64,000 nt of DNA from a virus (IMGVR_UViG_3300033121_001335:1-64000), one strand, 5' to 3'; counted from the stretch's first letter, positions 2,616-28,449 are shown. Notes: a model not told the origin generated them from the letters alone. Program-made: numbers and translations.

Positions 2616-3752
2616 TTATGGAAGCAAAGTAGTTGTTGAAGTTGTGCTACTTGTTGAGCTGGTGCTAGTTGAAGTTGTGGTGGTATTTACCGGACCGCTT
2701 TCATCCACTGGAGCACCCAAATATGGTGTTAACACTGCTACTAATCCTGCTGTCAGAGACTGAGGTGTATATATAATCACCCTTTCATCTTGCTTTAGAT
2801 TGGCTGTAAAGCTATCATCCTGTTCAGCTTCATCAAATTGAAGAACTAGTTGGTCATATGTAGTACCATCTGTAACCCAATCTTCGAATTGTTGGTTGTA
2901 TTCAGACAGGCGGAATAGATGTTTGTAGGCAGCTTGATAACTGTAATAATTAACCTGCTCCTGATATACCTGTGCTGATGTGCCTCTTGGATATGTGCTT
3001 CTTTGTGTTAGAGTTGCTGTTGCAGCCTGCTCACACCTGTCGTACACCAAGAAATCTACTGAGGTGTCGGGATTTGCATAAACCCAGCCTCTGAAATAAA
3101 TCCTATCATATTCAAAAGGATTTAAAGCAATGTCACAGAACTTACCATATGCTGTAATAGGCTTGCTTTCTACCACCAGAATCGCATCATCACCAGTACC
3201 CTGCTTAGAGAAGGTGAAGAATGTACTTATAGTGAGAGAGTTTGGCTCATTCTGCACTGCTGCTTCTTGAGCAATTTTTTCTAGGAATAAATCAATCAAA
3301 TCCTCATTTGCAACAGCTGCACAAGGACTTTCTCCACAATCACAACATGGAGTTTGGATTGTTACACTTCTGGTGAAACCATTAAAAGAGATGGTGTCCA
3401 GATATTGAGAGTGACCCCTCAGTGTTAGAGTGATGGACTGGTCACACTGAGCCGTAAAATCTGAAAACTGCCAGATTTCATTGGCTGCTGTGGGAGCGCC
3501 TGTCACCTTATACCATTTTTTTACTTTAGAAGCTTTTATATAATCGGACTTCTTTGTACCCAAATACGAATCGGGCCTACCCTGTCCAAATTCTATAAAA
3601 CTTGCAGTGCTGATATTACCTGCTGTAGCGGCTGTCCAGCTCCTATCTTTAAATACACCAAATTGACCATTGGTAAGGTCTTCAGTAGAACCTGATGTAG
3701 GCAATGAGTTATCAACAGGAACGACAAACAAGGCGGTTAGAGAAAAATCCAT
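2616..3752 (-). CDS. virion structural protein candidate with Ser/Thr-rich C-terminal tail
   Basis: 378 aa; in the morphogenesis operon; followed by a strong terminator; C-terminus NTTTTSTSTSSTSSTTSTTTLLP. Confidence 0.5.
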   Translation of the reverse strand: MDFSLTALFVVPVDNSLPTSGSTEDLTNGQFGVFKDRSWTAATAGNISTASFIEFGQGRPDSYLGTKKSDYIKASKVKKWYKVTGAPTAANEIWQFSDFTAQCDQSITLTLRGHSQYLDTISFNGFTRSVTIQTPCCDCGESPCAAVANEDLIDLFLEKIAQEAAVQNEPNSLTISTFFTFSKQGTGDDAILVVESKPITAYGKFCDIALNPFEYDRIYFRGWVYANPDTSVDFLVYDRCEQAATATLTQRSTYPRGTSAQVYQEQVNYYSYQAAYKHLFRLSEYNQQFEDWVTDGTTYDQLVLQFDEAEQDDSFTANLKQDERVIIYTPQSLTAGLVAVLTPYLGAPVDESGPVNTTTTSTSTSSTSSTTSTTTLLP

Positions 3753-5618: not shown

Positions 5619-7178
5619 TTACCAGAACGGTATTTCTTCAATCAACACTGTACGAGACATATCTTCGATGAATACATCACACCTGTCATCCATAAATATG
5701 GTGTAAGCATCCATTTTGTTGGCGGCAGAGTGGCCCTGAGATGCCATAGCACCGAGGTGACTTCTACGACCATCAATATACCCCCATGTCATGTTAGGGC
5801 GGCCCTGTCTCCTCACCTCTCTGATGTTATTAACCAGCTGTCCATCGGAAGTTGGGCTTACATCAAATACGATGAAGATTGGAGTGGATTTTTTGTTTTG
5901 ACCAAACTCCAAATTAGTTTGAGGCAGGTCAAGCTCTGTCAGGTGAATCAGGCTTACAACACCAGTTTCACGGGTAACGAAGCTATCAAAAGCGTAGTCA
6001 AGACGTAAGTTTTGACCTTTTCCTGAAATGAATTTATCGTTATCGCCCACAGTGAAATTCAATCCTGAAGCCAAAGCATCAATTTTAACGGCTTGTTGGA
6101 AAGCATCAAAACCTGCTTCATTTGTATATAGTTTAACCTTGCGGTCTCCCATATTCACCCTACGATAGAACAGGTCTCCGAACACTGTACGCAATAGATT
6201 CACAGAGAATTCACCACGATTGTAAGGAACATAATTACCTGATTTTCTCATACGGTGTACGATACCAGCAGAGATTTTCTTCAGCTCTTGCTTAGAGCCA
6301 TTGGTACGACCAAAGCCCGGTTTAGCAAAGAACATACGATTCACTTTCAATTCCAACATCTCTTTACGCATGAGAAACTCAATAAATGGCTCCCATTTAA
6401 TGTCTGAACGAGATTGGATTTGACCATTACGCACATTAGCGTAATATATAATATCCATTGGGTTACCCCATATATCTTTCTTGCCGTTGGCGATACGCTT
6501 GTCATCAGCCCAACCTGTAATTGTGTGTTCTTTAGAATATCCAGAACCAAGAGTTTCGAACATTTCGAGTCTCTCAGCCAGTCTATCCAGACCCAATAAG
6601 TCTTGGTCAAATTCACCAATAGAGGCGTTAATCACTTCAACCTCTACACCCGGAACAAACCGAGAGCGGTCAACGCTATCCACTGTAGGATTAGCAGAAA
6701 CCAATGTGGCCCTATTCAACCAGCCTGAGTTATATGGAGTTGGGTCAGATGTTAAGAGGATTTGCTGACCATGAATCCTAGAACCCATACTAACGATGGC
6801 ATTCTTAGAGATTTTAGTATCAAACACCACCTCAAATTCTTTACCATCAATACCAATATTAGTTTGGTCAAGAGTGGATTGAGGAACATCTATAATCACC
6901 GGGAACATGTATGGTTTCTCAATCTCCCAACGCCATGTATCACTCATCCCATCCAAATAATAAGGAGTGGATTTGTCTAACATTTGCAGGAAGTCGTTTT
7001 TATACAATGATGTCTGGGTGTATAAAGATATGATTTTCTTATCATAATCCGAAGGAGTGTCCCTGTGGAAACTTTCTAAGTGATTACTATCAGTAAGTTT
7101 ACCGATAGCACGTTTATCCATTTGGGAAATTCTACCTGCGTATAAACCAGTAAATCCCGGTAAAAACTGTTGAGCCAT
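5619..7178 (-). CDS. major capsid protein candidate
   Basis: 519 aa. Call is by position only: immediately downstream of the acidic scaffold-like gene in the order terminase-portal-scaffold-capsid. Followed by a 167-nt hairpin-rich intergenic region. Confidence 0.5.
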   Translation of the reverse strand: MAQQFLPGFTGLYAGRISQMDKRAIGKLTDSNHLESFHRDTPSDYDKKIISLYTQTSLYKNDFLQMLDKSTPYYLDGMSDTWRWEIEKPYMFPVIIDVPQSTLDQTNIGIDGKEFEVVFDTKISKNAIVSMGSRIHGQQILLTSDPTPYNSGWLNRATLVSANPTVDSVDRSRFVPGVEVEVINASIGEFDQDLLGLDRLAERLEMFETLGSGYSKEHTITGWADDKRIANGKKDIWGNPMDIIYYANVRNGQIQSRSDIKWEPFIEFLMRKEMLELKVNRMFFAKPGFGRTNGSKQELKKISAGIVHRMRKSGNYVPYNRGEFSVNLLRTVFGDLFYRRVNMGDRKVKLYTNEAGFDAFQQAVKIDALASGLNFTVGDNDKFISGKGQNLRLDYAFDSFVTRETGVVSLIHLTELDLPQTNLEFGQNKKSTPIFIVFDVSPTSDGQLVNNIREVRRQGRPNMTWGYIDGRRSHLGAMASQGHSAANKMDAYTIFMDDRCDVFIEDMSRTVLIEEIPFW

Positions 7179-7203: not shown

Positions 7204-8451
7204 TTATAGATTCCAAGGAGCAGGGGCTGCTTTTTGTTTTGTAGCCTGCTTAGTCTTTTTTGTAGCGAATTCTGAAAACAGCTCTGAAGATTCTTTACTC
7301 ACTGCTTTCTTTTGCACTTTTGACAGGTCTAAATTGTTTTGAAACAATAATCCTGCTTTTATCTTTAGTGCGTGGTTTTCTGGTTTATTCAGCTCTAAAA
7401 CGAATTTATCAAAATCCGTAAATTTTTTACCGTCCTTGCCTTGCCATTTCTTATTATATAGAAAGTCGAAGGCTTTCTGAGCCGTTTGTTCTGAGACGGG
7501 AATACCATCAAATTCTTTAGCCTGTATTTTTTCAGAAAGGATTTTAACTAAGGAGTTTTTATATTGTATGTCCTTTTGTTTCTCTCCTTCTATTTCTGCT
7601 GCTTTCCTATCCTCTTGGTCCTTCAAAGCTTTTTTATCCTGACTAATTAAAAGCGGAAGAGCTTCTTCTGCATCAGCCTGTAATTCTGAAATATCTTTTA
7701 ATTTCTGTATTCTTCCAGCAATCTTGTCTTCTGGAACCCCACTTCTTCTATACCACTCTGAAACTATTCGTTCTTGATTGGCTTCTGTATCTGTTGTAAG
7801 GGATTCGAAATCTTCTATCCTATTATACACTGGAAGATACTCTTTAGGGTCAACCCCCTTATTAAATATGGCATCGAATAGCTCTTGTCTGTCTTCACCA
7901 AATTTGGAAAGGTGATTGTCCAGCATAGCAAACATATCTCTCTGCTTCTGGTATTCGAAAAGCTTTTTAAATTCTTCTGGAGTTTTAGCTGTATGAACAA
8001 CCTCTTCCCCTGTTTCTGGGTCTACATCTGCTGTAAATACACCAGCTTGGTAAAGAGATTTTGAAAGAATTTCGAACTGAGACTTATCATCGTCAGTGCC
8101 TTCGTCATCATCTTCATTCTCCTCATTTTCTTCTTCCTCGTCTTCAGGCTTTTCTTCTTTTCCTCCTTCACCAACCTTCTTTTTTTCACCAAAGAGATGT
8201 TCAGAAGGGTCTGTTATTTCTTCTTCATCAGCCTTCTCTTCTGTTTTTGCTTTGGGAGGAGGGGTTTGAGTTTTGGCTTTGGCCTTGGCTTTTTCTTCTG
8301 CTAATTTGTTAGCAGCAGCCTCAGCATCAGCTTTTTCTTTTACCTTCTTTACATCCTCTAATTCATTTGGGTCAGTGTCTGCAAATAGTACATCATTAAC
8401 CCTATTGGATTCAGAGAATTCGTCCTCGATTCCGAAGAAATTATCCGCCAT
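7204..8451 (-). CDS. scaffolding protein candidate (acidic, coiled-coil, low complexity)
   Basis: EAAANKLAEEKAKAKAKTQTPPPKAKTEEKADEEE and EDEEEENEENEDDDEGTDDD tracts; position between portal and capsid candidate. Confidence 0.5.
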   Translation of the reverse strand: MADNFFGIEDEFSESNRVNDVLFADTDPNELEDVKKVKEKADAEAAANKLAEEKAKAKAKTQTPPPKAKTEEKADEEEITDPSEHLFGEKKKVGEGGKEEKPEDEEEENEENEDDDEGTDDDKSQFEILSKSLYQAGVFTADVDPETGEEVVHTAKTPEEFKKLFEYQKQRDMFAMLDNHLSKFGEDRQELFDAIFNKGVDPKEYLPVYNRIEDFESLTTDTEANQERIVSEWYRRSGVPEDKIAGRIQKLKDISELQADAEEALPLLISQDKKALKDQEDRKAAEIEGEKQKDIQYKNSLVKILSEKIQAKEFDGIPVSEQTAQKAFDFLYNKKWQGKDGKKFTDFDKFVLELNKPENHALKIKAGLLFQNNLDLSKVQKKAVSKESSELFSEFATKKTKQATKQKAAPAPWNL

Positions 8452-9108: not shown

Positions 9109-11703
9109 TTATTTCTTTGGTTTAGCCCTAGCCTTTTGTTTAGAGGCCTTTATTTTTTCTCTGTCAATTTTCATTTTCTCCATATTCTGCTCGAATTCCA
9201 CCTTTTTATTCTTTTGCTCGGCCTGAAACTGCATCATGTCCAGATTGAGCTTTTTGTTCTCTAGGTCTCTTTTGGCTATAGATTCCTGAAGCTTAAGCTG
9301 GTGTCCTGCTATTTCCATTATATCAGGGGTGCCATCTCCATCGGCATCTGTTGATGGTGCTTGGAAATATGTTGATATTTCTGCCTTAGCTAAGTCTGTA
9401 TTAGCCTTAACATCTGTCTTATATTTCTCCATCCTCAAATTGTCCTGATGGTGCCTTTCGTTTTGTTCTAATTGAGCCTGAGCTATTTCTTGCTCTCCTT
9501 GTGTCTTAGCCTGCTCATTTTCCTGCATTTGAGCCTGCATTTGGTCTTGCTTATTCTTAAGGTCTTTAAACACCTTCTGCATCTCACGGATGGAATTGGT
9601 AGCATAAAGAGCCGACACCTCGTATATACTAGCTCCATTTTGAAGCATAGCTTGGCTAAGCTGACGGAATTCGTTAAAGAGTTGTTGGTCTTCTGCTTTA
9701 GATGTTACAAACACCTTGAGGTCTTTTAGTTTTATATCCTCCCCTGTCACCTGAACGAATGCCGACTCCCCCTGAGAGGTTATAAAATTAACAGTGGAAA
9801 CTGGTTTCCTGCTTTCTATGTATTGGGAGCAATCAAGCATTGCTTGATATAGCTGGTTAAGGACGTATGAGTGGGCTGCAAAATATGGTTCTGTTTGAGC
9901 AAACGATTGAACCAAAGCATTCTGGTTAGCAGTGGCTGTTTCAGTGGCCAGTGGTGAACCAAGCCTTTGCCTATTCATACCTATAAGCTCCCAACATTCT
10001 TGTTTAAGCTGTACGGCCAATCTATACCGTGATTCTATTTCTGATGTTCTCGTAAGGTCTATATTCTTAGCTACAGTGGTGTTCTGTATAGACCCCTTTG
10101 TATTTTCAGGGGAATCGTCATCAAATATAATACCTCTCTTCCTTGCCTCTTCTTCCCATACGTCTATGGCATCGTTAGCATCTCCATCCTTCGGCCTTGG
10201 TATACGCCTAATGTTTACATTGGCAACATTACCAATCTCTTTTTCTAGAATTTCGAACAGCTGATTCATACAGATGTTGTATAATGTTTGGTAGGGTTTC
10301 ATCATATCCACCAAACTTTTAGGCTCTGTATTTTTCACTTCATGAATGAGACCTATAATAGGGGCATAGTCTAGGAGTGTGTATGGTTTAATGAAATAGA
10401 TGTCAGGGCCAATTTTAACTCCCTGATACCATTGATTAACCCAGCCCCATTCTATAGAAAGTTCTCCGGGAGACCCCTCTTTATATGATTCGTCTACGAG
10501 TGTGGTTTGTTCATCTCCTGCCTCATCTATATATGTAAGCTGACCCACCTTCTTTTTGGAATTCCAATAAGCTCTTATAACAACATATTTATATCCAAAG
10601 GAAAAGGCATTATTAGAACCAAGCCAATGATTGAGGTCATCTCTAAACTCATTGCCCAGCTCACTTTGTAAAATCATCCTTTCCTGATATATCAGCCTGT
10701 TATATGTATCATATTGAATTGTATTAATACCTGTTTTGTCCGTAAATAAGTTGGACTCTCTTCCATCCATGAATATAGAGTTTTGCATGGATTTCTGAAG
10801 ATGTTTAATTTCTTCTTCTGTGAGCTCTGGAAACTCTTCTATAATTTCGGATATTTCCTTAACATACACCGTACCTATTGCATAGGGTACGTTTGGTTCC
10901 CCCGAAGCACCTGATGTATATTTATTATCTGGTGTTCCTTTATGCCATACGTTTTTAGGGTTTTCTGTTTTGACATTAAATCCTAATTTGGAATTATCTT
11001 CATATATATGGTAGAACTCTCTGGAGCATATGAGAAGGTCTCTGAAAGCATCTTCTGATTTTTCCTTTGTATTAAACTGGGCTTTAAGAGCTGTGAGGAT
11101 ATGATTGCCCCACCTTTCAGCCAGCGATGTATAGTCTGTTAACAAGTCTTTAACATCTTCCATTACTAGTTGCTGCATGTCCTCATCGGAAATTTGAGAA
11201 GCATCCTCACCCTTCATAGCCATCTTATTTATAATAGTCTGTCTGGCTTGCTGGAGAATGAGTTGCTGAACTATTTCTGTCTTATATTGCAGTTCTTCGT
11301 TTCTGCTGTCGTCATCAAAAGCTTTCACCTTATGTATATCAGGTCTTTTAGAAAGCTCTCCCACCATTGTATTAACAGGTGGGTTTATAATTGGATAGTG
11401 CTTTACATATGATGGCAGGTCTTCTTTTTGTGTAAGAGTTTCTAAGAAGTCTTTAACCTCAGGGTCTGCATCCTGATAAAAGTCACTGGGTTTCAGTATT
11501 CCTTTCATCAAATCATAGTTCTTAACGAATGTCTCCTTATTTGCTTTATATTGCGTATACGCCATATTAGCAAAATAGTCAAGAGTGTTCTTGATGTAAG
11601 ATTCATTGGTAAGTTTCTCCTCCTCGCTTTTAAACGGGTCGGGGTAATTATTTAGATAGGAATATCCTAAATTAACATCACTATCACTTCTGGTAATTAT
11701 CAT
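9109..11703 (-). CDS. portal protein candidate
   Basis: 864 aa; overlaps the terminase stop (ATGA-type junction at 11700-11703); long Q/K/E-rich coiled-coil C-terminus; call is by position and size. Confidence 0.6.
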   Translation of the reverse strand: MIITRSDSDVNLGYSYLNNYPDPFKSEEEKLTNESYIKNTLDYFANMAYTQYKANKETFVKNYDLMKGILKPSDFYQDADPEVKDFLETLTQKEDLPSYVKHYPIINPPVNTMVGELSKRPDIHKVKAFDDDSRNEELQYKTEIVQQLILQQARQTIINKMAMKGEDASQISDEDMQQLVMEDVKDLLTDYTSLAERWGNHILTALKAQFNTKEKSEDAFRDLLICSREFYHIYEDNSKLGFNVKTENPKNVWHKGTPDNKYTSGASGEPNVPYAIGTVYVKEISEIIEEFPELTEEEIKHLQKSMQNSIFMDGRESNLFTDKTGINTIQYDTYNRLIYQERMILQSELGNEFRDDLNHWLGSNNAFSFGYKYVVIRAYWNSKKKVGQLTYIDEAGDEQTTLVDESYKEGSPGELSIEWGWVNQWYQGVKIGPDIYFIKPYTLLDYAPIIGLIHEVKNTEPKSLVDMMKPYQTLYNICMNQLFEILEKEIGNVANVNIRRIPRPKDGDANDAIDVWEEEARKRGIIFDDDSPENTKGSIQNTTVAKNIDLTRTSEIESRYRLAVQLKQECWELIGMNRQRLGSPLATETATANQNALVQSFAQTEPYFAAHSYVLNQLYQAMLDCSQYIESRKPVSTVNFITSQGESAFVQVTGEDIKLKDLKVFVTSKAEDQQLFNEFRQLSQAMLQNGASIYEVSALYATNSIREMQKVFKDLKNKQDQMQAQMQENEQAKTQGEQEIAQAQLEQNERHHQDNLRMEKYKTDVKANTDLAKAEISTYFQAPSTDADGDGTPDIMEIAGHQLKLQESIAKRDLENKKLNLDMMQFQAEQKNKKVEFEQNMEKMKIDREKIKASKQKARAKPKK

Positions 11704-18706: not shown

Positions 18707-19144
18707 ATGACAACTACAACAATTAACACTGCTACTGCTAAAACGACTCTTGCTGAGCATGTTAAAGAAGCAAGTGTAGGGATGAACCAAAGCGTAGTGA
18801 TTGACGCTAAAACCTTCGTAAAAGACCTCGCAGCCCTTGAGGTGAAGGAAGAGTTTGATTACTACACGAGAGAGAACAGGGGGCATTTCAGGTTTTTTAC
18901 AGAGGACGGTAAAAAGCTTTGTGTTAGCATTTCAGAGGCTGGATTGGCTTCTGCACCTGCTAAAATCAAGCTTAGCGAAGAGCCATCCGAAATCCTGATG
19001 TGGAGTTTGAAAAACCTTACATTACGGAGTGGTGTTAGCAACACTACAGGCAATGACTACCTTTCATTTGGTGTTACTGGTGAAGGCACACTTGTCACTG
19101 GTAAAATCAACCTTAAGGCTTTCATTAAGGCTTATGCTGGTTAA
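18707..19144 (+). CDS. hypothetical protein, first rightward gene
   Basis: ORF track; own terminator downstream; ends ..KAYAG. Confidence 0.65.
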   Translation: MTTTTINTATAKTTLAEHVKEASVGMNQSVVIDAKTFVKDLAALEVKEEFDYYTRENRGHFRFFTEDGKKLCVSISEAGLASAPAKIKLSEEPSEILMWSLKNLTLRSGVSNTTGNDYLSFGVTGEGTLVTGKINLKAFIKAYAG

Positions 19145-19146
19145 TT

Positions 19147-19170
19147 AAAGGGGCTTCGGCCCTTTTATTT
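19147..19170 (+). terminator. intrinsic terminator
   Basis: aaaggggc-ttcg-gccctttt with a UUCG loop and a T-run. Confidence 0.7.
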
Positions 19171-19419
19171 ATATAAATAAGGGGAATATTATGAATGGAA
19201 TGGTTGTAATAGCCTAGTATTACAATATTCTCCTTATTCTATATATAGGGTGGGTAATAAGTGTATACGAAGGGTGGGAAATACCAAAAACGAGGACATT
19301 ATTTATTAATCAATTGATTATCAGAATGTTATGTGTCATACATTAACATTGCTGTGGGCATTCGATTGCCAATACATCACTAACTAAAACAAGCTGGGAA
19401 GCTTTATATCCATTAATTT

Positions 19420-19692
19420 ATGGCAAAGAGTCCTGTATTTGTATCATTAGACCTGTCCACAACAACTAATTCTGGTGATAAAGCTGTTGTTGACAAAAGA
19501 TTATTAACCTCTTTCTTTAAAAAGTTTGAGCCATCCAATTTGGAAGAGCTTAAAACCAGTTTAAAAACACTGATTGATAACAGCCAAACTATGGAGGAAA
19601 TGGCGGAAGTGGTGGATGAACACCTGTACATCACCCAAATAGCCACCAAATATCATGGAATCACTCAGTCTGAAGCTTTAGCTGGTGTCTAA
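19420..19692 (+). CDS. hypothetical protein
   Basis: ORF track; isolated gene in the control region. Confidence 0.5.
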   Translation: MAKSPVFVSLDLSTTTNSGDKAVVDKRLLTSFFKKFEPSNLEELKTSLKTLIDNSQTMEEMAEVVDEHLYITQIATKYHGITQSEALAGV

Positions 19693-19977
19693 TTCACATT
19701 AAATATGTTTTGGTTATGTCCAATACACGCTGCAATAGGTGGTGAGGACATAATTAAATGCATTGTTGTGACAATTGTGGCTATAAAATAGACAAATTTT
19801 GTCTTCAGCCTTGCTGGTGGCTTAATACAGAGGAATTATATGTACAATATATAGGGGATTTGGGCATCAGATGTGCTATTATTGCTGGCAGCATTGGTGT
19901 TCATTTCCCTATATATTAGTATGTAGTGTTTTCCCTATGGCAAAAAGTGACTAAATGGGCTATTTTTATCATAACTC

Positions 19978-19990
19978 ATTGATTATCAAT
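19978..19990. promoter_or_regulatory. operator-like palindrome ATTGATTATCAAT (copy 1)
   Basis: Perfect inverted repeat ATTGAT-T-ATCAAT. Confidence 0.45.
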
Positions 19991-20095
19991 AAACATTTAA
20001 CGATGATTATTGGTAAATAACGATATTTTTATGATAAAATGGGTGATTTGGGGGGTGTGGACACATCCTTGGAACTTTGGTTTATAACGTAAACT

Positions 20096-20108
20096 ATTGA
20101 TAATCAAT
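20096..20108. promoter_or_regulatory. operator-like palindrome ATTGATAATCAAT (copy 2, flanked by GTAAACT)
   Basis: acgtaaactattgataatcaatatt; 21-nt near-identity with copy 3. Confidence 0.45.
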
Positions 20109-20833
20109 ATTTGGGGCAAGCTATAATGGCATTAAAACTTAATAACTATGAGCAAAATAGTTAGGTCTTATATGGTATTAATACGCCATTTTATTGCTCT
20201 TCTGAGCCATTAAGCATAAGGTGAACAACAATGCACATTTGGGGAATGTATAAATCCAGCCAAGCTATAATAGATGCAAGTATCCTTAACATTAAATCGG
20301 AGGAGAAAACTGGACGACTATTATAGAGAATACGTCTTGGGACAAACGGTAACCATTATAAGTCCTTTTTACTTATAACACAATCTGCAAACCAAATAAG
20401 CACATAATCCAGTTGTTTGCTTATTTTAAGGGGTTGTGTTCAGGATATTGAACTAAAAGCACCAAATGGAAGGATTGCCTACACTTGTTCTGCTTTTGTT
20501 AATAAAAAGTAATTACGAAACATTCCAGTTTTGGGTGTATTAGACGAAGGTGAGATTATATTCACTATTACTTTTAAAATACACTGCATTGTATTTATTT
20601 TCATTTACCACTTATTATTATGATGCAAACTATTGTTTTTTAATTGTTCAAAAAGAACAAAAATAAGTTCTGGGTCATCACTATGTCATGACATATGTGA
20701 GAAAACCTCAATAACTGGGTTTTGTATGCCATTTGAAAAAATAAATGGTAGACTTTCCCTAATATTGTAAGAGGTGATAATGGTCGTATTGGTACAGGCA
20801 TGTAAGAATATACGACACACTATTATGTAAACT

Positions 20834-20846
20834 ATTGATTATCAAT
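20834..20846. promoter_or_regulatory. operator-like palindrome ATTGATTATCAAT (copy 3, flanked by GTAAACT)
   Basis: atgtaaactattgattatcaataag. Confidence 0.45.
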
Positions 20847-21016
20847 AAGTACATTTAGTGTCTGGTTCCCAGTAAGGATTTTAATAAGCTGTAAATCAAT
20901 TAGTTATTTCTATAACTTTGAGATAATTCAGTAATAAGTCCTCTTCCAGAGAGTGGAAAAGAAATCAAGACTCTCCTAAGGTTGTGAGTAGGCTGGTGTT
21001 ACCTGCAACTCTCCTT

Positions 21017-21055
21017 AAAGAATACAGAATTATGCAGAGTTCTGTATTCTTTATT
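21017..21055 (+). terminator. intrinsic terminator / 13-bp hairpin
   Basis: AAAGAATACAGAA (21017-29) / TTCTGTATTCTTT (21040-52), then TATT. Confidence 0.55.
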
Positions 21056-21058
21056 GTT

Positions 21059-21107
21059 ACCAAAGACAAACTGGTTGTTTAATATGGTTCGATTCCATAC
21101 TTTTGGT
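21059..21107 (+). other. tRNA-like minihelix (acceptor stem + T-arm only)
   Basis: T-arm TATGG-TTCGATT-CCATA (21083-21099). 3' strand CTTTTGGT pairs with ACCAAAG (21059-65). No D arm and no proper anticodon arm. Confidence 0.3.
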
Positions 21108-21290
21108 CTAAATTGTATTATTATGAGAAATTATACATTTCATTGGCAGTATAAATATCAAATAACTGTTTATAATGCCAATAATGATTCTAAAAGGACA
21201 CATTCATCTGATAATATTAAGGATATTATTGATATATATCTTGATAAGAAAAGTGAAGGTGTATATTTTAGATTTTTGAAAAATAAATAA
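21084..21290 (+). CDS. hypothetical small protein
   Basis: ORF track 21054..21290 trimmed to its first ATG (MVRFHTFGL...). Confidence 0.35.
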   Translation: MVRFHTFGLNCIIMRNYTFHWQYKYQITVYNANNDSKRTHSSDNIKDIIDIYLDKKSEGVYFRFLKNK

Positions 21291-21297
21291 AATCACC

Positions 21298-21477
21298 ATG
21301 TGGAAGAAAATATATTTTATAGACTATGATAAAGTCAAAAAATATATTTGGGTTTATACATACAAACAATTTAAACACCTCTGGATTAGCCTTTTACGAA
21401 CTAAAGGTGAGATGTTTATAAAAATCTCCAGTCCTGAGTGTGGACACCAATTATTATGGAAAGACTCTATCCAATAG
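21298..21477 (+). CDS. hypothetical 59-aa protein
   Basis: Manual translation MWKKIYFIDYDKVKKYIWVYTYKQFKHLWISLLRTKGEMFIKISSPECGHQLLWKDSIQ*. Confidence 0.35.
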   Translation: MWKKIYFIDYDKVKKYIWVYTYKQFKHLWISLLRTKGEMFIKISSPECGHQLLWKDSIQ

Positions 21478-21683
21478 AAGACACTAAATATTCAGCTGAT
21501 TTCTCTTCTATGAGTCCGTTTATATATAAAGACTTTCCCTTTGGAAGATTAGTTTTTAAATGTAAAGAGGCGGGGGCTGTAATCATAGTTACTGATAACA
21601 ATTCTGTTATGGCTGCAAGATTTTCCAGAGATAATATGAGGCATGGAGTAAAATATGCATTTAGACCAAAATTTACTAATTAA
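21456..21683 (+). CDS. hypothetical protein
   Basis: ORF track 21438..21683 trimmed to ATG (MERLYPIEDTKY...). Confidence 0.45.
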   Translation: MERLYPIEDTKYSADFSSMSPFIYKDFPFGRLVFKCKEAGAVIIVTDNNSVMAARFSRDNMRHGVKYAFRPKFTN

Positions 21684-21684
21684 T

Positions 21685-21768
21685 ATAATTCTCTTCCTTA
21701 ATAATAAGCACAGCTTTATTGTATATAGTATTTGTATATTTTAAAGTTTTATTAGGGAAGAGAATTAT
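21685..21768 (+). other. 20-bp-stem hairpin
   Basis: ATAATTCTCTTCCTTAATAA (21685-21704) / TTATTAGGGAAGAGAATTAT (21749-21768). The single U.G pair is valid only on the plus-strand RNA. Confidence 0.55.
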
Positions 21769-21780
21769 AATTGTTGCAAT

Positions 21781-22872
21781 AAAGAGTGAGAGAAGGGAAA
21801 CATATGAGAGCTTGACTCATCCTTTCGAAGAGCATCACTCTTTAAAATTGCACTAAAAGCTACGAAAAACCTGTAAGGTTTCTAGAGAAATAAGATGAAA
21901 ACAAATTCACCTTATTGGTTATAAGTGGCTAATTGATTATTAATAAAAAATTTCTTAATAGTGGAAGTATGAATAAGTGCTAACATAGATTAGCAGCTTG
22001 CACTATTAATAGAATGGTAACAACTATTTCTTCTGCACAACTCATGTAGATATACTTCTTAGGACTTGAGATACAAAAGACAGCCTTGCTTGATAGAAAG
22101 GTGTAGGGAATATGTATCGTTGGATAGACTATCATCGAATCCCTAACTAAGATGTGAAACTACCTGATTAATAGGGTCTATGGATGTGTTCATAGTTTAC
22201 GAAGTGCGAACCATTAATCAGCTCCCAAGGGTGAGACAGTTGTAATAGGACAAGTCGTAGTACCTGTAAGTGTGTTAAACCTACCACTATTACAACTGAG
22301 TGCAGAAGAAACCTCTTTAAGAACTCTCTGGCTCTTGTGCATACATAAAAGTTACCGCTTTAGCGTTGATAGCCTAACAGCTATTTACAGATGGCTGGTG
22401 TATGTGGAGAGAGTAGAATAGCTGATACCGAACTACCTATCTGGTGAAGGTTTGAAAGCTTTGACTTCTACTGGCTGTAACCCAAGAGAGTTCTTATTTT
22501 AAAAATATTAAAGCTTAAAGCTGTCTTCGGCACTCAGAAGACCCACAGCAATAAGCTTTAACTTCTTTATGACAAAATAGGGTAGTGGTAAGATAAAAGT
22601 AAAGATATTGAACCAAGGAGTATTCCAACTGTCAATTATGACCATGTTTGTGCACTAAGCAGAAAGCCAGTATACATGACGAGAGCTTCCTTAGGGGCAT
22701 CTTTTAAACTTACTGCTGCTCTATTTTTAACAGCAATATTTATTACATATAAAATAAAATAGCTCATTGTGATATGTTGGATTGAGCAATCTGACATAAG
22801 ATATAAGGATAACCTAAGAGAAGGGGGACACAGCAGGCTTATTGCTTGGTACTTATATCACCCGAAAGGGTT
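21781..22872 (+). ncRNA. candidate large structured non-coding RNA (~1.1 kb, ORF-free)
   Basis: Nested long-range helices: 21781-89/21835-43; 22027-38/22300-11 (12 bp); 22164-72/22213-21; 22237-48/22287-98 (12 bp); 22319-28/22486-95 (10-11 bp); 22508-23/22546-61; 22800-07/22852-59; a GAAA tetraloop hairpin at 22860-71. No ORF of 60 aa or more on either strand. Confidence 0.4.
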
Positions 22873-23027
22873 ATTTATTAACATTTAAATTTATAAACAT
22901 GAAAAAGCAAACTTTTACGCCTGATAAGGCAGTTATTGAACATATATCAAAATTAATCAAATCTGGGAGATGATTTTGATGTATTAACAAAATTATCAAA
23001 AAGTCTTAAAAATAAAAGCATTAAGCT

Positions 23028-23750
23028 ATGTTTAAAAGAGCAAAAGTGGTTATGTTACCCACTAATCAAAAAGCACCTGAAGGTACATTATATCTTCAAC
23101 ACAACCAGCTTAGAATATCCCAAGGAGGTATTACTAATGCAATTAATCAAAACAAAAATAATAAAAGTGTAAATCATCAACATCTTTATATTTTATCAGA
23201 TGAAGAAATAAAAGCTGGATATTTAGCAATGAATATGTACAATAATACAAATACCATATTCAAGATAACTAAAGTTTTAGCAGATGGTTACGAAGGTCAA
23301 AAACTTAATGAGCCCAATATATTTTATGGTTTATCTAAAACTCTTAAAAAAATTATTGCTACAACTGATAGTTCTTTAAAAGTTTTTATTGATAAAGCAT
23401 ATATGAATTTTGGAGAAACAGAGTGTTTACCTCAACCATCTCAATCATTCATTGAAAAATATGTTGAGAAGTATAATAAAGGTGAACAGATTACTGATAT
23501 ATTAGTTGAATACGAATTTGATGTAAGTAGAAAACCATTTGCTATTGGTAGTAATCCTGAACATTATAATCTTAAAGTAAATCTTAAAGACAACACTATT
23601 ACAATTAAGCCTGTAAAAGAGAATTGGAACAGAAGTGAAGTGCTTCATTTTCTTGGCGAAGCTTTCAGATTGGGCAAACAGGTTCAAAGGAGTCCTGATT
23701 ATTATTCTTTATGTGACCCATTAGCTGATTTAGCTAAAAAATTATTATAA
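23028..23750 (+). CDS. hypothetical protein
   Basis: ORF track; 240 aa; no motif recognised. Confidence 0.65.
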   Translation: MFKRAKVVMLPTNQKAPEGTLYLQHNQLRISQGGITNAINQNKNNKSVNHQHLYILSDEEIKAGYLAMNMYNNTNTIFKITKVLADGYEGQKLNEPNIFYGLSKTLKKIIATTDSSLKVFIDKAYMNFGETECLPQPSQSFIEKYVEKYNKGEQITDILVEYEFDVSRKPFAIGSNPEHYNLKVNLKDNTITIKPVKENWNRSEVLHFLGEAFRLGKQVQRSPDYYSLCDPLADLAKKLL

Positions 23751-26215: not shown

Positions 26216-27046
26216 ATGAATATTTCTGAACACACGGGTAATTTCATTCAGGAAATGAAACGTAGAAATTATAGCCAAAACACTATTGATAACTATTCTT
26301 CCTGCATTAAATATTTTTTCGCCCAATCAGCCAAAGACCATCCAAAAAATATTAACGAACAGGATATAAAAGATTTTTTAGGCAAGTTCACAGAGGTAAA
26401 TACTCAACGCAACTACCATAGTGCAATAAAGAAATTCTACGATGTTTGTTTAGGACAAAAGGAAAAGTTCAAATATATTCCTTACGCACAAAAGAATAGC
26501 AAACTGCCAATAGTTTTATCTGTTGAAGAAATACAAAAAATGTTCTCTGTTTGCGAAAACACTAAGCACAAAGTTATACTTGCCTTACTATACTCATGCG
26601 GATTGAGGGTATCGGAATTAATAAATTTGAAGTGGGCTGATATTGACCGAAGCAGAATGATTATAAATATCATTCAGGCAAAGGGCAAAAAAGATAGACA
26701 GGTTATGCTTACGCCTCAATTAATCCCGTTACTGGAAAAGTATTACAAAGAATATAAAAGTAAAACGTATGTGCTGAATGGATGGAAGAACGAATTGCAA
26801 TATTCAGATAGAAGTGTAGGCGAAGTGGTTAAGCAATTAGCAACTAAAGCAGGTATCAGCAAAAGAGTTTATACTCATTTACTTCGTCATTGCAGCTTTA
26901 CTCACATGGTAGAAAATGGAACGGACATAAATTTAATACAGAAATTAGCAGGACATAGTAATGTTAAAACGACATCTATCTATACCCATATTTCACATAA
27001 CTTGATTTCAAAGATACACTCCCCTTTAGCAAATATTAATCTTTAA
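26216..27046 (+). CDS. int: tyrosine recombinase / integrase (XerC/D-like)
   Basis: Catalytic pattern: GLRVSELINL (Arg), HLLRHCSFTHM (H-x-x-R), AGHSNVKTTSIYTH (His..Tyr). N-terminal SAM-like domain NTIDNYSSCIKYF. Confidence 0.9.
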   Translation: MNISEHTGNFIQEMKRRNYSQNTIDNYSSCIKYFFAQSAKDHPKNINEQDIKDFLGKFTEVNTQRNYHSAIKKFYDVCLGQKEKFKYIPYAQKNSKLPIVLSVEEIQKMFSVCENTKHKVILALLYSCGLRVSELINLKWADIDRSRMIINIIQAKGKKDRQVMLTPQLIPLLEKYYKEYKSKTYVLNGWKNELQYSDRSVGEVVKQLATKAGISKRVYTHLLRHCSFTHMVENGTDINLIQKLAGHSNVKTTSIYTHISHNLISKIHSPLANINL

Positions 27047-27723: not shown

Positions 27724-27903
27724 ATGACAATATTAACATTTCCCGTAGAAATGCAAGAAGATGTGTATAAAGTAACAGGGCAGCCAGCTCCGGATGAAGT
27801 TATTGATGTCACAGTAAAATTTAAAGAAACACTTTCCGATGAAGTGTTAGGATTATTAAAAGCTTTAGGTGTTCAAATCAGATTTATGACACCTGTAAAA
27901 TAA
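27724..27903 (+). CDS. hypothetical 59-aa protein
   Basis: Manual translation MTILTFPVEMQEDVYKVTGQPAPDEVIDVTVKFKETLSDEVLGLLKALGVQIRFMTPVK*. Confidence 0.4.
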   Translation: MTILTFPVEMQEDVYKVTGQPAPDEVIDVTVKFKETLSDEVLGLLKALGVQIRFMTPVK

Positions 27904-27910
27904 ATGAATG

Positions 27911-28166
27911 GTTGTTTGACACTTATTTGACTATATGTAAGACACGGGTTCGACTCCCGTCTGCTCCACCGGATTAATATTGACCATTTATAGGCCGGGT
28001 AATTCCGGTGGGGCAGCTTGGCTTTGATTGCATATCAGTGGATAGGAATAGACTATTCAGTGTAATAAACGGCAAGAGAATTGCTATTGGTAGAACTGCA
28101 ATGAGAATTGCGGCCTAACAACGTATTGCCCCCCTGTATTTATACAGCGAAAAGGGGGCTTTTTTA
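27911..28166 (+). ncRNA. circularly permuted tmRNA-like element (acceptor piece, 39-nt linker, coding piece, terminator); 27941-27970 is alternatively an attP core
   Basis: T-arm ACGGG-TTCGACT-CCCGT (27944-60). 3' acceptor CTGCTCC-A-CC (27961-70). 5' strand GGGGCAG (28010-16) is its exact complement with a G3:U pair. CUUGGCUUUGA D-loop analogue. P2-like UUGCAUAU (28028-35)/AUAUGUAA (27933-40). Tag-like frame 28071-28118 GKRIAIGRTAMRIAA*. Terminator 28128-66. Confidence 0.45.
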
Positions 28167-28185
28167 ATTATTTAAACTAAATTTT

Positions 28186-28449
28186 ATGAGTGATAATAAA
28201 TACATTGTAGAATGTTCTGATGAAGAAGAATGGGAAGCTGTTAAGGCTAAGGGAAATGTTGATTTGGGGAGCTATGAGGTGTATCAATATAGCTATCCAG
28301 AAGAACCTATAGCTATTGATGTTAATAATGGAGAATGAAGTAGGCTGAGTTATTACACTAACAAAAGGGGAGGAGAATATAGCGACTATAAGTTTATAAC
28401 AGCTCAAGAATATTTAAACCCTGTTTCTGAGCCTCTTCTATTTAATTAA
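28186..28449 (+). pseudogene. tail-family gene (..SEPLLFN) interrupted by in-frame TGA at 28336-28338
   Basis: Manual translation MSDNKYIVECSDEEEWEAVKAKGNVDLGSYEVYQYSYPEEPIAIDVNNGE*SRLSYYTNKRGGEYSDYKFITAQEYLNPVSEPLLFN*. Both halves are in one frame. Confidence 0.5.

Follow-up and report, generated by a model that had tools for sequence, protein, structure and literature searches.

Positions 21781-22872 (+) of the viral contig IMGVR_UViG_3300033121_001335, of which we analysed a stretch of 64,000 nucleotides (nt; the window), raise the question of what a crAss-like phage encodes in about 1.1 kb that holds no long open reading frame (ORF). An original prediction had put this stretch forward as a candidate large structured RNA built from nested helices. 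The region is a non-coding structured RNA read from the + strand, and the explanation that we consider probable is that this part of the early region carries a module derived from the twister ribozyme and since catalytically disarmed, together with a second module and a number of lineage-specific hairpins. The first of these, module 1, is the unit at 22027-22313 (+), referred to below as the window copy, which matched a covariance model of its family (R1) with 55 bits (E about 1e-13), the sole match in the 64 kb.

The module 1 family and the twister ribozyme

A first k-mer scan (CTCCCAAGGGTGAGAC) gave only two matches, both GC-rich and due to chance, and failed because the window has an additional A after GAG. 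The 17-mer CAGCTCCCAAGGGTGAG found 37 loci in IMG/VR, of which 35 were true homologues with an extended shared motif and 2 were GC-rich chance matches. R1, built from 23 trimmed sequences, then identified a single window unit, 47 units in the loci from the k-mer search and 17 more in metagenome contigs and contigs of metagenome-assembled genomes (MAGs). It also found 12 units in loci recruited independently via a 240-aa protein encoded downstream of the stretch, all on the strand of that gene. The family numbers more than 60 units in contigs of uncultured crAss-like phages, most of them single units of 65-340 nt, and several of its loci share structural genes with the window. It is known from uncultured material only (IMG/VR contigs, lake metagenomes and MAG contigs, the last probably being mis-binned phage); blastn of the cultured-phage database (50,697 records) with the window region or with a canonical unit gave no match.

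When 54 units from 42 sources were aligned, 96.9% of the cells were paired (a share inflated for the reason given below), compared with at most 51% when the partners were slid. Compensatory, two-sided changes were present in 27 of the 39 modelled pairs, a number reached by none of 500 shuffles. The strand was indicated by G.U pairs within the helices and by a twister consensus that is legible on the + strand only.

Minimal members without the middle 100-190 nt exposed the core, and with it the likeness to the twister self-cleaving ribozyme, for which the reference is reportedly Roth et al. 2014. The consensus of the family runs (U)U^AA-UGCAC-C-AUAA-CUCAC-[N or insertion]-UCCCAAGG-GUGAG-[P5]-A-GUGCA-GAGGG, and a twister from the literature has the sequence U^AA-CACU-GCC-AAU-GCCGG-UCCCAAGC-CCGG-AUAAA-AGUG-GAGGG. 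Twister descriptors in the literature give CCGGTCCCAAGCCCGG for P4/L4, 'NC' for the first pseudoknot (PK1), 'GRG' for the second (PK2) and 'NA' for the cleavage site, with an A as general acid, a G as general base and P0, P3 and P5 as optional auxiliary stems. Judged by their sequence, the canonical family members are type-P1 twister ribozymes with a P5 (Rfam RF03160, as cited in PMC11662667). Examples are the units of L100 (2626-2895), L093 and L139 (2121-2552 (-)) and the minimal ones of L085 (7183-7278) and L033 (5858-5943).

This identity was assembled element by element. The cleavage dinucleotide, U^AA, stands directly before UGCAC in the 27 canonical units parsed. The outer helix corresponds to twister P2 and occurs as UGCAC/GUGCA, UGUAU/AUACA, UGCGU/ACGCA, UGCAU/AUGCA and UGUAC/GUACA; three of its five pairs are doubly changed, and the nucleotide ahead of the PK1 C fits the covariation better when counted as part of a fifth P2 pair. 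The hairpin with UCCCAAGG corresponds to P4/L4, all five P4 pairs being doubly changed (CUCAC/GUGAG, CUAAC/GUUAG, CUCCA/UGGAG, CCUGU/ACAGG and UCACA/UGUGA); about 97% of the cells are paired. The family L4, N-UCCCAAGG, compares with CCGG-UCCCAAGC-CCGG in the published sequence, and two-sided changes were found in 10 of the 10 modelled pairs of P5. At the general base position the canonical units have GUGCA-GAGGG, and GAGGG is likewise found in the published sequence. The strands that would form the two pseudoknots are present and complementary: PK1 cells were 97.7% paired and PK2 cells 86%, the PK2 exceptions being degenerate copies or copies of the zipped design described below; both pseudoknots barely vary, with one or two double changes each. 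Canonical units would cut at U^AA by the standard twister mechanism, in which A1 serves as general acid, the initial G of GAGGG serves as general base, and L4 is docked by PK1 and PK2.

Most members also carry, at L4 position 1, a conserved insertion of three helices and 100-190 nt that is absent from the minimal members. Its layout is GURG-AUAUAAAG-ACUUCUUA[arm]UAAGAUGU-GAAA-CYAC-CUGAUUAA[arm]UUAAUCAG; the joiners (AUAUAAAG and GAAA) are nearly invariant, the arms vary freely, and helix 1 covaries (GUGG/CCAC, GUAG/CUAC and GCAG/CUGC, with one pair being G-C in 16 and A-U in 14 cases). Imperfections at L4 position 1 of twister are reportedly tolerated, and activity is reported to show no correlation with the length of L4; no description of a comparable L4 domain was found in the twister literature searched. 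A speculation, which we think doubtful, is that crAss-like phages harbour distinct 'giant' twisters with a functional L4 domain, one sublineage of which, including the window copy, was exapted in non-catalytic form. If so, the L4 domain might bind a ligand or a protein, making these natural allosteric or payload-carrying ribozymes, and the sublineage would have zipped its active site shut in a phage for which the 'payload' counts and not the cleavage.

Two or three units occur together in many loci, sometimes head to tail (L102, L103, L122 and L098); in these four, as at about 9878-10471 (-) of L103, the ...GAGGGAU of one unit abuts the AAUGCACC of the next. Cleavage of such an arrangement would release RNAs one unit long (250-330 nt), each with a 5'-OH and a cyclic phosphate at its ends. 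In two loci (L115 3259-10487 (-) and L121 2524-3315 (-)) units lie in or beside phage tRNA arrays on the same strand, which suggests co-transcription and a possible role in precursor processing. A tRNA T-arm-like sequence (GGGTTCGAGTCCC) occurs just past the unit of L036 (about 8300-8345), and others (GGGTTCAATTCCC) lie inside the variable insertion arms of L102 and L119; ARAGORN called no tRNA at these sites. Small self-cleaving ribozymes of the hatchet kind tend to cluster, and L102 has a hatchet ribozyme (3088-3239 (-); Rfam, 81.7 bits) on the same strand as its tandem units and about 1.1 kb from them.

The zipped copy in the window

The window copy aligns to the family model and keeps P2, P4, the L4 sequence, the insertion and P5. 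Its parts are as follows.

22027-22313, + strand: module 1, a putative twister-derived unit of zipped design
22027-22038, + strand: 5' strand of a fused P1-P2 helix, UUUCUUCUGCAC, where twister has its cleavage-site loop (..U^AA-UGCAC)
22300-22311, + strand: 3' strand of the fused helix, GUGCAGAAGAAA, in the place of the P2 3' strand and GAGGG (general base and PK2 strand)
22041-22045 (CUCAU) with 22231-22235 (GUGAG), + strand: P4, covarying in the family
22046-22221, + strand: L4 insertion of three helices
22222-22230, + strand: L4 remnant, CUCCCAAGG (published twister L4, UCCCAAGC)
22237-22298, + strand: P5 auxiliary stem, CAGUUGUAAUAG/CUAUUACAACUG at its base and variable at its top

Within the insertion, helix 1 is formed by GUAG (22046-49) and CUAC (22160-63), helix 2 by ACUUCUUA (22054-61) and UAAGAUGU (22148-55) around a variable 86-nt arm and followed by GAAA (22156-59), and helix 3 by CUGAUUAA (22164-71) and UUAAUCAG (22214-21) around a variable 42-nt arm.

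What the window copy lacks is the catalytic loop. There is no N^A-A site, the sequence at this point being UUCUUC-UGCAC with its positions base-paired, and two further elements are missing, the C that follows UGCAC and would pair in PK1, and the GGG at the end of GAGGG, which makes up the PK2 strand; the tail, GAAGAAA, is instead paired to the 5' strand. The result is a fused helix (UUUCUUCUGCAC/GUGCAGAAGAAA) of 12 continuous Watson-Crick pairs, whereas the helix of canonical units stops after 5 pairs, at which point UAA lies on one strand and GAGGG on the opposite one. As the catalytic internal loop and its elements are gone, the window copy is most likely non-cleaving, that is, it probably no longer cuts itself.

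This zipped design is recurrent and not an isolated accident, as it was found in six other sequence versions (L041, L104, L114, L144/L153, L151 and L152). A scan of IMG/VR for the window-type zipped pattern itself gave no match. The zipped helices are UCUUUUGUAC/GUACAAAAGA in L041, UCUCUYUGCAY/GUGCAGAGGGA in L104, L114 and L152, UCUCUUUGCAC/GUGCAAAGGGA in L151 and UCUUUGCAC/GUGCAAAGG in L144/L153. All zipped copies have 9-12 continuous pairs with compensating changes (CUCUCU/AGAGGG, CUCUUU/AAAGGG, UCUUUU/AAAAGA and UUUCUUCU/AGAAGAAA), and all are without the UAA and the PK1 C. The rare GAGACAG signature of the window recurs in a close relative, L139, whose unit is nevertheless canonical (UUAAUGCACC ... 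GAGGGG), from which we conclude that the zipped state is derived. This state could have arisen by deletion of both loop strands from an L139-like unit with P1 UCUUC/GAAGA, or by descent from an L114-type zipped form via covariation from G-C to A-U. Module 1 would then descend from a phage lineage of type-P1 twisters with P5 and a three-helix domain at the first L4 position; fusion of P1 and P2 to a 12-bp helix would have removed the catalytic loop, and the unit would stay embedded in its transcript as a stable scaffold that still displays its peripheral arms.

Related loci were compared through the 240-aa protein, whose gene begins at 23028 and which has 677 homologues. A single-protein locus search of IMG/VR with this protein found nothing; an alignment-based search then recovered loci, and the contigs encoding its closest homologues were compared with the window. 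One contig (L001) is identical to the window and another (L002) is 95% identical, whereas L003 and L004, whose 240-aa homologue is 86% identical, share only window positions 22014-22496. Within this part the core at 22215-22415 (201 nt) is 99.5% identical between the window and L003, and among the window, L002 and L003 whole hairpin arms are swapped with the bases remaining paired.

A number of points weigh against a disarmed twister with a retained fold. The mean pair run of P1 (2.6) equals that of a permuted-partner control (2.6), P1 being reported as dispensable for twister activity. The Rfam twister models gave no match in L033, L085 and L044 at E<=10, in 14 loci at gathering score, or at gathering score across 146 kb; this non-detection is likely due to the AU-rich stems, the long P5 and the insertions. 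Both cleavage by the canonical units and its loss in the window copy are read from sequence. The window copy has no AAAG, 4 nt of the near-invariant insertion joiner, which could indicate decay, and it retains its L4 without explanation although the partners of L4 are gone; a search within the window for a new L4 partner gave complementary matches at chance level only. The alignment of 54 units (A6) was fitted to the model, so that its share of paired cells is inflated; the number and variety of compensatory pair types are nonetheless large. The 35 loci were recruited by a 17-mer in L4/P4, for which reason the apparent invariance of L4 is partly a recruitment effect, although the units recruited by protein or by model carry the L4 motif too. 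Finally, no partner protein, including RtcB and other ligases, recurs beside the units, the recruiting 240-aa family alone excepted, and the function is for this reason a putative one.

One alternative, which we regard as unlikely, is that module 1 is a decaying, functionless twister pseudogene and the surrounding 1.1 kb junk or spacer. It would account for the missing joiner, for the degenerate or truncated units of other loci (L116, L101, L120b, L094b and L044), for the lack of the L4 consensus in zipped L041 and apparently also in L144, and for module flanks that are not conserved. However, drift that lost the catalytic loop would not yield a perfect 12-bp helix; the seven versions of the zipped helix hold their 9-12 pairs via compensatory changes, the core is all but unchanged between phages whose neighbouring proteins have diverged to 86%, and the arm swaps preserve pairing. 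The last three observations speak for a fold that is being maintained and against mere decay. We infer that the RNA is expressed and that its fold has been retained as functional, for example in binding a factor or in stabilising the transcript.

Module 2, the flanks and the phage genome

Does the disarmed twister unit form part of a larger RNA? The stretch is folded well beyond chance. The helices of the original prediction were all found by a pair check, as listed here together with the other features outside module 1.

21685-21768, + strand: flanking hairpin of 20 bp (19 Watson-Crick and 1 G.U), outside the conserved modules
21781-22026, + strand: upstream spacer with local hairpins (21781-21843 and others), z -2.3 (21781-21843) and -3.7 (21844-22026)
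21781-89/21835-43, + strand: helix, 9/9 Watson-Crick
22027-38/22300-11, + strand: helix, 12/12 Watson-Crick
22164-72/22213-21, + strand: helix, 9/9 Watson-Crick
22237-48/22287-98, + strand: helix, 12/12 Watson-Crick
22319-22495, + strand: module 2, a separate conserved structured element, fold z -3.6 (+)
22319-28/22486-95, + strand: helix, 10/10 Watson-Crick
22508-22561, + strand: lineage-specific hairpin just past module 2 (22508-23/22546-61, 14/16 paired), z -6.0
22562-22872, + strand: downstream spacer with hairpins, before the 240-aa gene at 23028
22800-07/22852-59, + strand: helix, 8/8 Watson-Crick
22860-71, + strand: ACCC-GAAA-GGGU hairpin, 4/4 Watson-Crick

In 21684-23027 there are 29 exact 9-mer inverted pairs no more than 320 nt apart, compared with a mean of 3.3 (standard deviation 2.4, maximum 13) in 300 dinucleotide shuffles. 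The minimum free energy (MFE) of 21781-22872 (1092 nt) on the + strand was -296 kcal/mol against -253 +/- 7 for shuffles (z = -6.0); on the - strand z was -4.3, and for two coding controls of the same length it was -1.7 to -2.8. Covariation in homologues was found at three of the predicted helices (22027-38/22300-11, 22164-72/22213-21 and 22237-48/22287-98). Three other helices conserved across the family (22041-45/22231-35, 22046-49/22160-63 and 22054-61/22148-55) had not been listed, and the twister kinship of the central domain had not been recognised.

That 21781-22872 is one large RNA like GOLLD or ROOL, with nested domains acting together, we now think very unlikely. The fold of the whole stretch would fit it, as would the occurrence of the family in phages near tRNAs, as with GOLLD and ROOL, and the distance of only 8 nt between modules 1 and 2 in the window, L002 and L003. 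However, L036 has module 1 and no module 2, and in L139 module 2 lies about 680 nt beyond a canonical module 1 with an ORF in between; because the modules occur singly or apart in these loci, the 1.1 kb is a mosaic of separable RNA modules and not one obligate RNA. Most family members, moreover, are single units, and the flanks at 21781-22013 and 22500-22872 have no homologues beyond the 95% identical strain (L002). The upstream spacer (21781-22026) had no match in L003, L139 or other loci, the hairpin at 22508-22561 is present in L002 and absent from L003 and L139, and the downstream spacer (z -3.0 on the + and -1.5 on the - strand) is conserved only in L002. Nor did any of the named classes match: a cmscan of 21400-23200 at E<=10 gave just chance-level matches to snoRNA, miRNA and sRNA families and none to GOLLD, ROOL, HEARO, raiA, OLE or a group I or II intron, and at gathering score the sole match of the whole window to Rfam 15 was a permuted tmRNA elsewhere. 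Group I or II introns, RNase P, a hammerhead (CUGAU../GAAA) and a CRISPR or guide-RNA scaffold were also dropped as candidates, since their supposed motifs either covary as helices or are not present in all members.

Module 2 is closed by the helix AAGAACUCUCUGG/CC-CA-AGAGAGUUCUU, and its inner helix (CUCUUGUGCAUAC/GUAUGUGGAGAG) bears two hairpins, with a variable hairpin at 22412-22472. Its homologues are those of L002, L003 and L139 only, two scans of IMG/VR having given nothing or chance matches; across three sequences the closing pair steps from G-C through G.U to A-U, and other hairpins stand in for the variable one. The element loosely resembles a P4/L4 with insertion (CUCUC ... ACCCAAGA-GAGAG), and as R1 gives it just 2.9 bits we leave it as an unclassified conserved element. 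In L139 the element is followed immediately by the start codon (ATG) of the 240-aa homologue, and given this position it may be the leader of that gene.

The resemblance bears on another alternative, that the window unit is still an active twister, split or permuted, with U^AA, CC and GGG supplied by module 2 or in trans. We give it very little credence. The L4 (CUCCCAAGG) is indeed intact without local partners, module 2 can be read by eye as loosely like a second P2/GAGRG plus P4/L4 arrangement, and natural twister permutations are known (PMC10085705). Besides the low R1 score, however, complements of L4 are no more frequent in the window than chance would give, and module 2 is not needed as a complement in L139, where it is found along with a canonical unit that is complete. 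It is scarcely conceivable that the region instead encodes small proteins or is a DNA-level element (an origin, packaging or attachment site), for despite ORFs of 30-53 aa on both strands and an integrase gene 3 kb downstream, conservation tracks helices and not reading frames, homologues differ by hairpin-sized indels, the G.U pairs and strand-specific consensus point to RNA, and the gene caller put no gene there in L001.

As had been noted, 21684-23027 has no ORF of at least 60 aa when ORFs are counted from start codons. All three stop codons are present in every frame, and neither TAG nor TGA recoding opens one; alternative genetic codes (TAG, TGA or TAA reassigned) were rejected, as single-stop recoding gave no convincing ORF. 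The segment is also less AT-biased than its flanks, with a GC content of 0.39-0.42 at 22050-22500 and 0.26-0.32 in the flanks. The 20-bp hairpin at 21685-21768 favours the plus transcript, as its G.U pair had suggested, with an MFE of -31.9 kcal/mol (+) vs -19.4 (-) and z of -8.8 (+) and -5.5 (-). It begins 2 nt past the stop codon of the ORF at 21438-21683, is not followed by a U-tract, was seen in the identical contig L001 only, and might serve in processing or as an unusual kind of terminator.

The source of the window is an uncultured crAss-like phage: the ORF at 5619-7178 (-) matched the Crassvirus major capsid family at 2.4e-24, and the nearest cultured capsid, that of Leptolyngbya phage Lbo-JY46, is only 24.7% identical. 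The - strand carries the structural genes as far as 18555, and genes on the + strand take over from 18707, with 19693-23027 (+), beyond the extent noted originally, nearly free of long ORFs. The ORF-poor 2 kb upstream of the segment (19693-21437, +) fold with z of -5.3 at 19750-20049 and about -4 at 20650-21100, both on the + strand; nothing was found there in Rfam at E<=1. Positions 19000-19992 are 94% identical to L139. Further downstream, about 830 nt past a tyrosine integrase gene (26216-27046, +), lies a permuted two-piece tmRNA gene (27879-28209, +), with the tag peptide GKRIAIGRTAMRIAA according to ARAGORN and an Rfam tmRNA_permuted match of 53.7 bits at 27911-28118; either the phage carries a tmRNA of its own, or the host gene is present here as an attP copy. 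Two-piece tmRNAs occur in, for example, Alphaproteobacteria and some Cyanobacteria, and the gene hints at a host from such a group. A standard tmRNA is present in L092.

Relation to known systems

GOLLD and ROOL resemble the stretch in being large, multi-helix, non-coding RNAs of phages and prophages, often near tRNA genes (phage and near-tRNA context, PMC12286853). The window element differs in being modular, with a ribozyme-derived core, and matches neither of them in sequence or structure in the Rfam search at E<=10. The link to hatchet is one of neighbourhood, in that the hatchet of L102 lies near family units on the same strand, and its fold is different. Small ribozymes have been located near phage genes (PMC6765202). 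The window itself had no match to hatchet, pistol, hammerhead or twister-sister.

The closest system is twister of type P1 with P5, which canonical family members match in both order and sequence (U^AA, P2, the PK1 C, P4, the L4 UCCCAAGS, GAGGG and the optional P5), likewise with covarying P2, P4 and P5, and in a phage-like setting next to hatchet. The family differs in its AU-rich stems, its weak or absent P1, its frequent L4 insertion of 100-190 nt and its non-detection by Rfam, and the window copy, with no cleavage site, PK1 partner or PK2 strand, falls short of what defines an active twister. The twister class itself is known; what is new is a previously unrecorded and unusually large twister family in crAss-like phages. 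The biological role of twister is still unknown, and this lineage gives a concrete handle on it, with a grown domain, tandem units that would be excisable and repeated apparent loss of catalysis with the fold kept; it would illustrate how a ribozyme can naturally become a structured RNA without catalysis. It also indicates that, in environmental crAss-like phages, the curated models overlook a sizeable branch of a well-studied ribozyme class.

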